Below, piece by piece: positions 4,097 through 54,017 of a stretch of 56,817 bases of DNA. Made by a program: the position numbers and the translations under genes. Origin of the DNA: Patescibacteria group bacterium (GTDB taxonomy: Bacteria > Patescibacteriota > Patescibacteriia > UBA1558 > GWA2-36-10); the NCBI GenBank assembly GCA_041650755.1, contig JBAZKN010000002.1:135030-191846 (forward strand), given 5' to 3'. Below the pieces are notes generated by a model, which did not search any database, had not been told where the DNA came from, and was given only the letters and a program-made list of their open reading frames with translations. Numbering within the stretch: the stretch's first letter is position 1; each line of letters starts with the position of its first letter.

Positions 4097-4171
4097 TGGT
4101 GCCTCCGACAGGAATCGAACCCATATCCCAAGCTCCGGAAGCTTGTGTTCTATCCGTTGAACTACGGAGGC
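4097..4171 (-). tRNA. tRNA-Arg(CCG)
   Basis: GCCTCCG/CGGAGGC acceptor stem, CAAGC-TTCCGGA-GCTTG anticodon arm, TTCGATT T-loop, encoded CCA. Confidence 0.95.
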
Positions 4172-11025: not shown

Positions 11026-11115
11026 TGGCGGAGAGTGAGGGATTCGAACCCCCGATCCACTTGCATGGATAACAGTTTTCAAGACTGCCGCATTCGACCA
11101 CTCTGCCAACTCTCC
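11026..11115 (-). tRNA. tRNA-Ser(TGA)
   Basis: GGAGAGT/ACTCTCC acceptor, anticodon loop CTTGAAA, long variable arm, TTCGAAT, CCA. Confidence 0.96.
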
Positions 11116-11153
11116 AAAATTTTTTATATTCGACCCAGCTCTATCAACAAAAG

Positions 11154-11203
11154 TGGCCGAAGGCCATGAGCGACCCTGCGCCGTATGGTGCAGGGGAGTC
11201 GAA
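11154..11203 (-). repeat. Palindromic trailer of tRNA-Arg(GCG)
   Basis: TTCGACTC-CCCTGCACCATACGGCGCAGGG-TCGCTCATGGCC directly after CCA. Confidence 0.85.
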
Positions 11204-11279
11204 TGGCGTCCCCGAGAGGAGTCGAACCTCTAACCTCTTGGACCGCAACCAAGTGCTCTATCCATTAAGCTACGGGGAC
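11204..11279 (-). tRNA. tRNA-Arg(GCG)
   Basis: GTCCCCG/CGGGGAC acceptor, CTTGG-TTGCGGT-CCAAG anticodon arm, TTCGACT, CCA. Confidence 0.95.
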
Positions 11280-11348
11280 ATGATAAATATTATTTTTAAG
11301 TAGCGGTAGAGTGTTTAGGTTAAGTGCCTAAAACACGCAAGGTTTTAC

Positions 11349-11374
11349 GCCATGCACCCTACGTGGTGCATGGC
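11349..11374. repeat. 10-bp perfect hairpin overlapping the CCA end of tRNA-Ser(GCT)
   Basis: GCCATGCACC-CTACGT-GGTGCATGGC. Confidence 0.85.
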
Positions 11375-11462
11375 GGAGAGGGTGGGATTCGAACCCACGG
11401 ACCGGTTTAACCCAGTCAACAACTTAGCAGGTTGCTGCTTTCAGCCGCTCAGCCACCTCTCC
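11371..11462 (-). tRNA. tRNA-Ser(GCT)
   Basis: GGAGAGG/CCTCTCC acceptor, anticodon loop CTGCTAA, long variable arm, TTCGAAT, CCA. Confidence 0.96.
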
Positions 11463-39932: not shown

Positions 39933-40730
39933 ATGTGGTGGCAAAATTATTGGCCACAAGCAAATATTTTTACTGTCGGCCCAATAGCCGTTCATTGGTA
40001 TGGATTGATTTTGGCTTTTGGTCTGTTGGCGGCTGGTTTTTATTCTTATTATCAGCTGCGCAAAAAACAGATTTTGATTGCCAGCCAATTTGAGGATTTG
40101 ATTTTTTATTTAGTTATCTTCAGCCTGCTCGGCGCAAGAATCGGCCATGTCTTTTTTACTTGGTATTATTATCAGGATCATTTAGCAGACATTTTGAAAG
40201 TTTGGCAAGGAGGCTTATCTTGGTGGGGTGGCTTTTTGGCGGGAGTGTGTGTCTTGATATGGTGGGCCAAGAAACATCAAATGAACTTTTTTGCGATAGC
40301 CGATATTGTAGCTCCGGCCGCAGCCTTGGGGCAGGCTATAGGCCGCTGGGGCAACTATTTTAATCAAGAGCTGTATGGCCGGCCAACCAATGGGTGGTGG
40401 GGCATAGCCATTGCTCCTCAGCATCGCCTGTCGGGGTATGAGCGATATGATTATTTTCAGCCAACTTTTTTTTATGAATTTATTTTAAACTTGCTTTTGT
40501 TTTTTGCCTTAAATAAATTTTTGCAATTTGCCAAAATTAAAACCGGTTTAGTCACCTGGCTTTATCTAGCGGGCTATGCGCTGATTCGTTTTTCTTTGGA
40601 ATTTATCAGAATTGATGATACGCCAACTTGGTGGTTTTTGCGTGCGCCGCAGGTGATTAGCCTGCTAGTATTTATCTTAGCTATATTTAGCATTATTGGC
40701 TTGCGCCATAAACCCTTGTCAAAGTCATAA
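39933..40730 (+). CDS. lgt: Prolipoprotein diacylglyceryl transferase
   Basis: HWYGL, GARIGHV, GRWGNYFNQELYG, QPTFFYE, RFSLEFIR. Confidence 0.95.
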   Translation: MWWQNYWPQANIFTVGPIAVHWYGLILAFGLLAAGFYSYYQLRKKQILIASQFEDLIFYLVIFSLLGARIGHVFFTWYYYQDHLADILKVWQGGLSWWGGFLAGVCVLIWWAKKHQMNFFAIADIVAPAAALGQAIGRWGNYFNQELYGRPTNGWWGIAIAPQHRLSGYERYDYFQPTFFYEFILNLLLFFALNKFLQFAKIKTGLVTWLYLAGYALIRFSLEFIRIDDTPTWWFLRAPQVISLLVFILAIFSIIGLRHKPLSKS

Positions 40731-40744
40731 AAATAGTGTAATAT
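40716..40744 (+). promoter_or_regulatory. Putative promoter for the tRNA-Asp element
   Basis: TTGTCA-17 nt-TAATAT. Confidence 0.5.
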
Positions 40745-40778
40745 ATCCAATGTTTTAAACATGGGTTAGTATAAGAGC

Positions 40779-41126
40779 ATGCGCGCCTGCCTGTGATGGG
40801 ATGATAGTTTCCCGCCGCAGGCGGGACCCCGCCAAAAGCGGTGGCAGCCATCTTGATGTTTTGCCTGTCATCCCGCAGAGCGGGACATAGCGCAGGTATG
40901 GGAATTTATTATTAAGCTCTGCATCTGTCTGATGGGGTGGTAGTTCAGCTGGTTAGAACGCCTGCCTGTCACGCAGGAGGTCGAGGGTTCAAGTCCCTTC
41001 CATCCCGCCAGACAGATGCAGAGCTTTTAAAATTGACGAGCAGGAGGCCTGCCCTGCAAATCGTGAAGCGGTTGTGCGGGGTCGTCCCGCGTTACGGGAT
41101 CCATCCCGCCACAGGCAGGCGCGCAT
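40779..41126. repeat. Nested inverted repeats enclosing tRNA-Asp
   Basis: Outer arms 40779-40803 / 41102-41126 (23/25); inner perfect 18-bp arms 40914-40931 / 41009-41026. Confidence 0.9.
40934..41010 (+). tRNA. tRNA-Asp(GTC)
   Basis: GGGGTGG/CCATCCC acceptor, CCTGC-CTGTCAC-GCAGG anticodon arm, TTCAAGT, CCA. Confidence 0.96.
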
Positions 41127-41190
41127 AGTTATTATCGATCGCTTTTTTAGCGATTTTTTGGTATAATATTAAGGAGTTTGGTAGAATTAT

Positions 41191-42117
41191 ATGATTTGGA
41201 ATTTTATTATCGTAATTTTTGGCTTGGCTTTGTTTGAAATTATCAGTAGTATTGATAATGCTATTATCAATGCTCATGTTTTGCAGACCTTGCCGGAAAA
41301 ATTCCGTAAGATTTTTTTATTTTGGGGCATTTTATTTGCTGTCTTTATAGTGCGCGGCGGTTTGCCATTTTTGATTATTTGGATATCAAATCCTAGCCTG
41401 ACAGCTGGCCAGATATTCACTTCCGCTTTTTCTAATGGCGGAGACGTTAGTCATCACTTGGCACAGTCGGCTCCACTACTGCTTTTGGGAGGCGGCATTT
41501 ATCTTTTTTTGGTATTTTTATCCTGGTTATTCTTGGAAGAAAAAAAATATGCTTTTTTGGTGGAGAATTTTCTTCATCGCCAGGCAGCTTGGTTTTATGC
41601 CATTGCTTCTATTGTGGTTACCTTGGCAGTGTATATTTCTTTGCAGATTAATCCACTACTAGCCCTAGCTGCTACTATAGGCACTAGTGCCTTTTTTATC
41701 ACTGACGGCTTCAAGAAGAACTCGGAAAGCAAGGAGAAAGAACTATTGGGCTCAAACATGAGTTTTTGGAGCAAGATTCTGTATCTGGAGATTTTAGACG
41801 CCTCTTTTTCCATTGATGGCGTGATTGGCGCTTTTGCCTTTACTATGTCCGTGCCCCTGATTTTGATTGGCAACGGCATCGGTGCTTTTGTGGTCAGAGA
41901 GTTTACCATCAAGGGCATAAAAGTAATTGCCAAATTTGCTTATCTAAAAAATGGCGCTATGTATTCTATCGGTTTTTTGGGTTTACTAATGATTTTGGAA
42001 AGTTTTGGCAAAGAGTTTCCTTTTTGGCTGGCGCCACTAAATACCACCTTACTGTTGGTGATTTTTCTTTGGTTGTCTTATCGCGAATTAAGGGCGGTAG
42101 CCGGGCAGGCTAAATGA
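41191..42117 (+). CDS. DUF475 / TerC-like membrane protein
   Basis: EIISSIDNAIINA, EILDASFSIDGVIGAFA, YLKNGA. Confidence 0.85.
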   Translation: MIWNFIIVIFGLALFEIISSIDNAIINAHVLQTLPEKFRKIFLFWGILFAVFIVRGGLPFLIIWISNPSLTAGQIFTSAFSNGGDVSHHLAQSAPLLLLGGGIYLFLVFLSWLFLEEKKYAFLVENFLHRQAAWFYAIASIVVTLAVYISLQINPLLALAATIGTSAFFITDGFKKNSESKEKELLGSNMSFWSKILYLEILDASFSIDGVIGAFAFTMSVPLILIGNGIGAFVVREFTIKGIKVIAKFAYLKNGAMYSIGFLGLLMILESFGKEFPFWLAPLNTTLLLVIFLWLSYRELRAVAGQAK

Positions 42118-53619: not shown

Positions 53620-53937
53620 ATGGATAAACAATATTTTGTTTATATTTTGGCAAATTATAAAAATGGGACTTTGTATGTTGGTGTAACCAATGATTTGTAT
53701 CGACGTGTAACTGAACACAAACAAGGTAGGGTAAAGGGATTTACACAAAGATATAAAGTTTATAAATTAGTTTATTACGAAGTCATCGATAATGTCTATA
53801 ATGCAATTACTAGAGAAAAACAAATAAAGAAATGGTATAGAAAATGGAAAATAGAATTAATTGAGAAGTATAATAAAAAGTGGGAAGATTTATATTATAA
53901 TTTATTTGATGGATCTCCGGGTCAAGCCCGAAGATGA
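53620..53937 (+). CDS. Small GIY-YIG nuclease family protein
   Basis: YFVYIL, GTLYVGVTNDLYRRV.EH, KLVYYE, AITREKQIKKW.RKWK.ELI. Confidence 0.92.
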   Translation: MDKQYFVYILANYKNGTLYVGVTNDLYRRVTEHKQGRVKGFTQRYKVYKLVYYEVIDNVYNAITREKQIKKWYRKWKIELIEKYNKKWEDLYYNLFDGSPGQARR

Positions 53938-53994
53938 CAAACATTAGCGGTGTTTTTATTGCTCTGCTAGTCATTCCCACGAAAGCGGGAATCC
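53911..53994. repeat. Inverted pair of GTCAT-tagged palindromes at the GIY-YIG 3' end
   Basis: Minus: GTCATCTTCGGGCTTGACCCGGAGATCC (53911-53938); plus: GTCATTCCCACGAAAGCGGGAATCC (53970-53994, ATTCCC-N8-GGGAAT core). Confidence 0.9.
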
Positions 53995-54017
53995 ATACCA
54001 CACATTAAGATATGTCC

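Follow-up and report, generated by a model that had tools for sequence, protein, structure and literature searches.

Long-range pairing of leader and trailer around a stable RNA, with covariation, is known from rRNA operons, whose leader-trailer helices are RNase III substrates. We analysed a locus in which a comparable pairing surrounds a tRNA gene, namely the tRNA-Asp(GTC) gene of a Patescibacteria group bacterium (GenBank assembly GCA_041650755.1, contig JBAZKN010000002.1). It lies in a stretch of 56,817 nt, here referred to as the window, in whose positions all window coordinates are given, and the unit under study occupies 40779-41126 (348 bp). Two nested inverted repeats enclose the gene, and we call the paired leader and trailer sequences clamps. 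RNase III is encoded in this genome too. Unlike the rRNA helices, the clamp, which is known from sequence, encloses a single 77-nt tRNA, would stack on its acceptor stem, would sequester the CA of CCA and has a length of 13-22 bp.

Other described systems involve tRNA genes as targets or neighbours. Integrative elements such as prophages and islands insert into tRNA genes, restore the gene with sequence of the insert and leave a displaced partial copy, features that seem to recur here; unlike these elements, the present loci have neither integrase nor cargo, their inserts measure 20-170 nt (~400 nt with a nuclease gene), displaced pieces stand on both sides, and the 5' part is duplicated in nuclease-bearing versions. 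Free-standing GIY-YIG homing endonucleases, such as SegB of the phage T4 tRNA cluster, share with our loci the small nuclease genes in tRNA regions and the presence/absence polymorphism. Unlike SegB, the proteins considered here, known from their genes alone, are single-domain, Ssn-like and 84-105 amino acids (aa) long; each of their genes has a tRNA fragment on one side and a full copy of that tRNA on the other, and the stop codons coincide with U8-A9-G10 of the tRNA.

Ssn enzymes, including Neisseria SsnA, are single-domain GIY-YIG proteins that cut single-stranded DNA beside hairpins of the NTS type, an Ssn-related motif with the sequence CGTCATTCCCGCGMAVGCGGGAATCYRG (PMC11893778). Single-domain GIY-YIG genes are present in our host genome as well, one of them in the window with GTCAT hairpins behind it, and the sequence TGTCAT-CCCGC-AGA-GCGGGA found here is close to the NTS CGTCAT-TCCCGCG-MAV-GCGGGAA. 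The Ssn enzymes are described as restricting transforming single-stranded DNA, whereas in our case an NTS-like hairpin is joined directly to the anticodon loop of a tRNA; tRNA genes are nowhere mentioned in the Ssn paper (0 occurrences; PMC11893778). Finally, archaeal intron-containing, multi-intron and split tRNAs also have breaks at 37/38 and in the D, variable and T loops and consist of pieces. Unlike these, the present case concerns a bacterium without EndA or RtcB, in which the interrupted copy has decayed and the insert carries a working tRNA. By analogy, the clamp would work like an rRNA leader-trailer helix, and the nesting would be like that of tRNA-restoring elements or homing cassettes.

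The nested tRNA-Asp locus and its relatives

The host genome has 1.02 Mb in 10 contigs (41% GC, 99%-complete) and falls among Patescibacteria of the Falkowbacteria/Buchananbacteria type. We consider the 348-bp unit to be probably a nested replacement tRNA-Asp locus, in which a live clamped tRNA lies inside the relic of its predecessor, with one promoter, one terminator and an origin by restorative insertion. The initial annotation had described two nested inverted repeats, three GC-rich mini-hairpins and a promoter just upstream, and all of these were recovered, the hairpins at the positions it gave. The inner repeat is perfect (18/18), begins 2 nt ahead of the tRNA 5' end, takes in the CA of CCA and, counted on through the acceptor stem, reaches 30 nt at 87%; the outer one (40779-40803 / 41102-41126) matches at 23/25 and bounds the 348 bp. 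The longest perfect inverted repeat in 40700-41200 is thus 18 nt, against a mean of 8.2 and a maximum of 10 in 100 dinucleotide shuffles. Folded as + strand RNA, 40770-41135 reaches -193 kcal/mol (z = -10.3), and the minus strand fold of the unit is nearly as stable (z = -11.9). The unit has a GC content of 55-60%, and the spacers around it are AT-rich. An assembly artefact is an unlikely source of the repeats, because their length is below that of the k-mers usual in assembly and independent assemblies contain the same arrangement.

The outer arms are evidently no separate clamp; what they contain is the acceptor stem (6/7 bp) of an older tRNA-Asp copy together with its leader-trailer helix of 17 bp. 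The flanks repeat segments of the live tRNA collinearly, namely positions 1-12, the anticodon arm 30-37, CGCAGG, 39-46, GGTCG and 66-77. The outer 23/25 repeat resolves into 17 perfect clamp pairs and 6 acceptor-stem pairs, and it has the register of the inner clamp, with TG opposite the CA of CCA. Moreover, its two mismatches stand opposite the discriminator and C74, in the same places as in the inner clamp, and therefore the outer layer is a second, older tRNA-Asp unit with a leader-trailer helix of its own. The mini-hairpins of the initial annotation accordingly look like insertions into the old gene at its D-loop, anticodon loop, variable loop and T-arm. Copies related to the D-loop insert are dispersed in relatives, and homologues of the 34-nt insert sit in the variable loop or T-loop (L002, L007, L020, L021; loci are numbered L and genomes G). 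The remnant GCCTGTCA aligns with the ...GCCTGCCTGTCA that ends the perfect outer 5' halves of L002, L007 and L011. One mini-hairpin had been said to carry the GTCAT tag of the GIY-YIG repeats; the tag is present, and its nature is that of the old anticodon GTC, A37 and the first base of the hairpin. This outer anticodon hairpin, TGTCATCCCGCAGAGCGGGAC, resembles the NTS by eye, with a shorter stem, and the junction of GTCA and hairpin is also present in loci of Peregrinibacteria and Peribacteria (L145, L152). In the window the outer copy has lost the D-stem 3' strand, its T-arm is swapped for a hairpin with a 5-nt loop, and its acceptor stem contains one mismatch. Interrupted by the live gene and by hairpins, the older copy is, as far as its predicted structure goes, no longer able to form a tRNA.

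A third layer, older still, may in turn have left the outer clamp as its extended anticodon stem, because CGCCTGCCTGT in the clamp's 5' arm is the same as tRNA positions 26-36 and the 3' arm, CAGGCAGGCG, matches CACGCAGGAG at 8/10. As a general account of the clamps, a fossil anticodon stem was rejected: the outer clamp of the window and the inner clamp of L011 support it, and the tRNA-Trp and tRNA-Glu clamps do not.

A DNA search of 60 relatives, together with fetched loci, yielded 32 distinct tRNA-Asp loci, which appear to represent every stage: perfect outer halves, decayed outer halves and the empty gene. In L020 (G032), L002 (G005) and L007 (G023), a 5' half (positions 1-38/39) lies ~100 nt upstream of an intact gene and a 3' part (46-77 or 58-77) ~70 nt downstream. 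These outer halves are 95-100% identical to the inner tRNA (100% in G032 and G005) and share with it even the lineage-specific C6:G68 pair. Decayed outer copies are found in G036, G022 and G030, being further gone in the first two, and the decay differs from lineage to lineage. The outer copy of L011 (G030) can be read in the order 1-13, D-loop insert, 22-38, hairpin, CGCAGG, the clamp-tRNA-clamp unit, 5' side of the T-arm, hairpin, 59-77 and terminator. When the window was aligned with six of these loci, homology was found block by block, including the D-loop insert and the ACnnAGCGCAG tail. In relatives the promoter is kept as a block cttgcCAaa...atagtgtatNat ahead of the outer 5' end or clamp, and an orthologous terminator ATCGCC...GGCGATTTTTTG lies behind the locus in most of them.

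L041, close to G032, has an uninterrupted and clamp-less tRNA-Asp, whose promoter and trailer are identical to those of L020 at 112/120 and 44/45 positions. Its tRNA equals the joined outer halves of L020 minus the inserts of 170 nt and 36 nt; occupied and empty alleles are therefore found in close relatives, with flanks 93-98% identical. In a second family of the order, L021 (G054) is an independent double-clamped nest, whose inner unit lies in the loop of the anticodon-loop hairpin.

No exact match to the outer-arm junction was found among the searched genome contigs, and DUF475-anchored searches of genome and metagenome contigs gave no same-genus relative (best match 82% protein identity) and the synteny of tRNA-Asp and DUF475 in 4 loci only. 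A one-mismatch pattern search across the order returned mostly normal tRNA-Asp genes. In L024 (positions 1041-1970; G014), an open reading frame (ORF) of 236 aa, secreted or lipoprotein-like, lies between tRNA-Asp with its terminator and a copy of positions 33-77 with the same terminator, an arrangement that looks like cargo insertion at the anticodon loop.

The inner clamp is kept in 20 of the 32 related loci, in the same register and with differing sequences, as 12-20 Watson-Crick pairs with TG at -4/-3 opposite the CA of CCA. Double (compensatory) changes occur at 16/18 clamp pairs (ungapped alignment of 32 loci), a count that takes no account of shared ancestry, and the observed covariation values were reached in 0/500 shuffles. 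Pairing holds in 86.7% of cells, compared with 39-52% when the partner is slid by 1-3 columns. Inside the 20 clamps there are 335 Watson-Crick pairs, 15 G·T and 1 A·C; G·T is tolerated and A·C is not, and therefore the helix would form in the sense-strand RNA, a point against a palindrome that acts purely at the DNA level. We thus regard the inner clamp as a predicted RNA helix that extends the acceptor stem and is conserved as structure, not as sequence, across the order. The rRNA-like processing stem proposed in the initial annotation fits it well, given this covariation, the tolerance of G·U but not A·C, and the presence in the genome of the RNase III gene (rnc) and a type-A RNase P RNA.

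The clamp is present in 12/12 loci with flanking tRNA-Asp fragments versus 8/20 without them, a comparison uncorrected for shared ancestry. In the host genome, the three clamps that extend an acceptor stem (tRNA-Asp, tRNA-Trp and tRNA-Glu-CTC) all lie amid remnants of older copies. Most host tRNA genes are followed directly after CCA by CTCGAC, TTCGAC or CTCGAT and GC-rich repeat modules, for example at window positions 4097-4171 and 11026-11462. In L015 and L016, the 3' arm of the tRNA-Asp clamp seems to have given way to such a post-CCA module.

Small GIY-YIG genes at tRNA loci

A search for tRNA-Asp 5' halves followed by the hairpin led to a Peregrinibacteria contig (L145/L151), on which the tRNA-Asp 5' half (1-38), GTCA-TCCCGATGAAGTCGGGA, an 87-aa ORF, a full tRNA-Asp, a terminator, a CCTGCCTGTCA-hairpin, the 3' part (51-77) and a terminator follow one another; a Peribacteria contig (L152) has the same layout. 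The 87-aa ORF encodes a GIY-YIG domain (PF01541, 3.8e-19) with 39% identity to the product of the window's own GIY-YIG gene (53620-53937), and its stop codon is U8-A9-G10 of the tRNA-Asp. The host genome contains three such GIY-YIG genes. At L147:343-755 (G000:C4:31342-31754), a 5' half of tRNA-Ser(GGA) is followed by a GC hairpin module, an 84-aa GIY-YIG ORF and a full tRNA-Ser, the stop TAG again being U8-A9-G10 of the full tRNA. The hairpin module adjoining this gene is the reverse complement of one in the D-loop insert of the tRNA-Asp unit. Behind the window's GIY-YIG gene, at 53937-54010, two hairpins (GTCATTCCCACGAAAGCGGGAATCC and GTCATCTTCGGGCTTGACCCGGAGATCC, minus strand) closely match the published NTS/SRM pattern.

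We then considered 50 loci encoding relatives of the 87-aa protein in many phyla (L151-L200). In 37 of them a tRNA is found no more than 700 nt away, with one exception always on the same strand, and several, mostly from Patescibacteria, have split copies of the same tRNA around the ORF and tRNA. In Bacteroidota, the small GIY-YIG gene typically follows tRNA-Val(TAC). Within the host's family, 34/39 genomes possess 1-6 such genes, and in 16 of the 30 genes sampled (L281-L310) a same-strand tRNA starts -20 to +60 nt from the gene end. When the range is taken as -20 to +140 nt, 14/21 genes have a 5' fragment of the same tRNA upstream of the ORF; these fragments are 13-36 nt long and begin at or near position 1. 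The Russian-doll arrangement recurs in the ultra-small Patescibacteria. We found no published description of nested tRNA genes or of tRNA-linked Ssn-type nucleases in the open-access literature.

Under the favoured reading, the whole unit would be transcribed as one, from its promoter to its terminator (Table 1). The inner helix would lock the ends of the live tRNA together, promoting correct folding without mispairing with the decoy halves, and would offer a near-continuous duplex of ~27 bp as an entry for RNase III. Maturation would be completed by RNase P and by trimming of the 3' end to the encoded CCA, and the helix with its TTTT tail may double as a weak terminator. As for the origin, the resident tRNA-Asp gene would have received a fresh copy, or fresh ends, through at least one restorative insertion. 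Such insertions would be of the kind that still carries an Ssn-like GIY-YIG gene elsewhere in Patescibacteria and at the host tRNA-Ser, the nuclease gene having since been lost at the tRNA-Asp locus. Insertion(s) of this restorative GIY-YIG-cassette type appear to be the most likely origin. The 5-nt sequence GCAGG on either side of the inner unit could be a target duplication or, equally, the overlap of two independent insertions that restored the 5' and 3' sides.

A broader proposal, which we put forward tentatively, is an undescribed class of self-complementing tRNA-gene elements in Patescibacteria, in which an Ssn-like GIY-YIG nuclease drives insertion into tRNA-gene loops. The nuclease would recognise hairpins in single-stranded DNA, its target would be a loop of an essential single-copy tRNA gene, and the element would persist because it supplies that tRNA anew, as a whole copy or as a 5' part. 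Several such rounds, followed by loss of the nuclease gene, would then produce Russian-doll loci, and the clamp would be selected to fold and process the live tRNA amid decoy fragments. Part of it may go back to the fossilised anticodon stem of the layer before (compare CGCCTGCCTGT).

If these readings hold, the locus illustrates how, in a genome of ~1 Mb, a tRNA gene that is essential and present once survives repeated invasion. It would also provide a clear example, backed by covariation, of an rRNA-style leader-trailer helix in the precursor of a tRNA. Moreover, it would tie the recently described Ssn hairpin nucleases to tRNA genes, suggesting a role for very common small GIY-YIG proteins.

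Competing explanations

Several points weigh against the reading of the unit as a nested replacement locus. The nuclease gene is absent from the window's unit, the ORFs overlapping the unit match no Pfam family, and no tRNA-Asp cassette carrying the nuclease was found in the host's order. The transcript ends, the RNase III cleavage and the insulating role of the helix are all things we infer, and the disregard of shared ancestry in the covariation counts belongs here as well. Eight clamp-bearing loci have no detectable outer remnants, and therefore the clamp does not require nesting. The difference between L041 and L020 may be an insertion or, in the other direction, a collapse by recombination between repeats. 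Finally, the outer clamp is perfect (17/17) while the remaining outer copy is badly decayed, and it is absent from same-family relatives; should transcription end efficiently at the inner helix, RNA would seldom include the outer 3' arm, whose perfection would then be unexplained.

Those eight remnant-free loci also suit a first alternative, which we consider unlikely: the flanking fragments would be passive scars of tandem duplication or integrase att duplication at a tRNA hotspot, with REP-like hairpins added later, no cassette would have moved, and the clamp would have evolved separately as a processing helix or terminator. In L006, L026 and L005, tandem duplications of the tRNA 3' end with the clamp 3' arm or trailer do exist downstream of tRNA-Asp (in L005 with a hairpin placed after GACA within the duplicated arm), the 236-aa gene between tRNA-Asp copies in L024 looks att-like, and 3' fragments begin in the anticodon loop or T-loop, reportedly the classic crossover sublocations of integrases. 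However, what stands ahead of the outer 5' halves is the empty allele's promoter and leader and not a copy of the inner leader, and therefore simple tandem duplication fails; no integrase or island lies between repeats that are 60-170 nt apart; and the order of 5' fragment, GIY-YIG gene and full tRNA recurs too regularly for a random scar. Integrase-mediated insertion was rejected as a candidate, for the 3' repeat is present but only ~90 nt, taken up by non-coding hairpins, are enclosed by it, and there are 5' fragments on the upstream side.

Rather more doubtful is the view that the inner clamp is mainly an intrinsic terminator, with the folded tRNA as its loop, the acceptor stem nucleating the helix toward the U-tract and processing being secondary. 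By inspection, a run of at least 3 T lies behind the clamp 3' arm in about 14/20 clamp loci, and in L014, L017 and L018 it is apparently the sole terminator, with no other terminator hairpin visible in the flank shown. The window, however, has just TTTT and a canonical terminator 110 nt further on, and the T-run is missing in L008, L011 and L021-L023. Furthermore, a structured loop of 77 nt is atypical, lying far outside known intrinsic-terminator geometry.

We find it very improbable that the repeats are DNA-level palindromes, whether as a foldback or miniature inverted-repeat transposable element (MITE), an invertible segment, or a cruciform or replication feature, with the covariation arising from template-switch correction of quasi-palindromes. 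The two nested palindromes are perfect or nearly so, the minus strand folds nearly as well as the plus strand, and Ssn-type hairpin-specific single-strand nucleases are encoded in the genome. Against this, the pair counts of 15 G·T versus 1 A·C mean better pairing as sense-strand RNA than as DNA or antisense; the unit is a single genomic copy, its arm sequences differ between genomes and its orientation is constant. No target-site duplication was found, the flanks being AGAGC/AGTTA at the outer arms and TTATT/TTAAA at the inner arms. Of the tRNA-carrying MITE suggested in the initial annotation, the tRNA on an inserted segment stands, in spirit only, while the single copy, the varying arms and the lack of a target-site duplication speak against a MITE proper. 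The invertible unit it had also considered was not borne out, the orientation of the tRNA relative to promoter and terminator being the same in every clamp-bearing relative.

That the outer copy still works, as a split or multi-intron tRNA, and the precursor thus yields two tRNA-Asp (outer halves ligated or two-piece), is scarcely credible: every insert does lie in a loop (D, anticodon 37/38, variable, T), the outer halves of G032, G005 and G023 are close to identical to the inner gene, and in the window both the acceptor stem and the clamp of the outer copy have survived well, but EndA (PF01974) and RtcB (PF01139) are absent from the genome while control genomes matched, and the outer copy would therefore be a relic, which its missing D-stem 3' strand and T-arm, its acceptor mismatch, its lineage-specific decay and, by inspection, the lack of 3-nt bulges in the helix at the 37/38 insert also indicate. 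A cloverleaf can be rebuilt from the exon parts in the relative L020 and not in the window. An archaeal bulge-helix-bulge intron at the 37/38 hairpin was ruled out by the bulge sizes, and no Rfam intron family matched for a group I intron, even at E <= 10; at the gathering threshold and at E <= 10, Rfam gave only tRNA and chance miRNA-like matches to the palindrome.

Feature coordinates and other tRNA loci of the host

The unit lies between lgt (39933-40730) and a DUF475/TerC gene (41191-42117). Its features are compiled in Table 1.

Table 1. Coordinates of features of the tRNA-Asp unit in the window
Feature	Position	Strand	Basis or remark
Unit promoter, sigma-70-like, TTGTCA-17-TAATAT	40716..40744	+	Consensus scan
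Outer clamp 5' arm, 17 nt, contains CGCCTGCCTGT (tRNA-Asp positions 26-36)	40779..40795	+	17/17 with 41110-41126
Outer copy 5' end, positions 1-12, GGGATGATAGTT	40798..40809	+	Direct repeat of live 5' end; aligns with intact outer 5' halves of relatives
GC-rich double-hairpin insert of 35 nt at outer D-loop site, T13/C14	40810..40844	+	Same insert at same site in L003 and L011
Outer anticodon-arm remnant GCCTGTCA	40863..40870	+	Anticodon GTC at 40867-40869, A37 at 40870
Hairpin TCCCGCAGAGCGGGA placed after A37	40871..40885	+	With preceding GTCA resembles the Ssn-related motif (NTS)
Outer anticodon stem 3' strand, CGCAGG	40891..40896	+	ACnnAGCGCAG(G) tail kept in L002, L003, L007, L010, L011 and L020
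Inner clamp 5' arm (leader)	40914..40931	+	18/18 with 41009-41026; covariation in 20 relatives
Live tRNA-Asp(GTC)	40934..41010	+	ARAGORN; Rfam tRNA, 70.3 bits; sole tRNA-Asp gene found in genome
Inner clamp 3' arm (trailer)	41009..41026	+	First bases are CA of CCA; last two T open the TTTT run 41025-41028
GCAGGAGG, outer anticodon-stem 3' strand and variable-loop start	41040..41047	+	Aligns with GCAGAAGG of L007 and L020
Hairpin insert of 34 nt, CCTGCCCyG...GAAGC...CGGGG family, in outer variable loop	41048..41081	+	Homologous inserts in L002, L007, L020 and L021
Hairpin TCCCGCGTTACGGGA replacing outer T-arm, right after GGTCG	41085..41099	+	GGTCG-hairpin-TCCATCCCGCCA module also in L005 and L006
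Outer copy 3' end TCCATCCCGCCA: acceptor 3' strand, discriminator, CCA	41100..41111	+	12/12 direct repeat of live 3' end
Outer clamp 3' arm	41110..41126	+	Inverted repeat
Canonical intrinsic terminator, GATCGC-loop-GCGATT and T-run	41137..41162	+	Closes the unit

Annotation pipelines and tRNA finders detect the inner gene only and miss the fragments, which would leave tRNA-gene turnover in Patescibacteria invisible in current annotations. Elsewhere in the host genome, pieces of earlier gene copies, fused to GC-rich hairpins, flank tRNA-Cys (L150, G000:C3:77600-78200), tRNA-Glu(CTC) (G000:C5:57900-58230) and tRNA-Trp (L149, G000:C1:223700-224400). In the outer tRNA-Cys the break falls within the anticodon, and the acceptor stem (GGTCACG/CGTGACC) is different yet self-complementary. 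No gene for tRNA-Met, tRNA-fMet or tRNA-Asn was found in the 99%-complete assembly. Outside the window, at G000:C1:134652-134737, Infernal called a tRNA of 57 bits that was missed by ARAGORN; it has its own promoter, a 21-nt D-loop with a CCGGCCGG hairpin and the anticodon loop TTATCGG, perhaps with the anticodon AUC.

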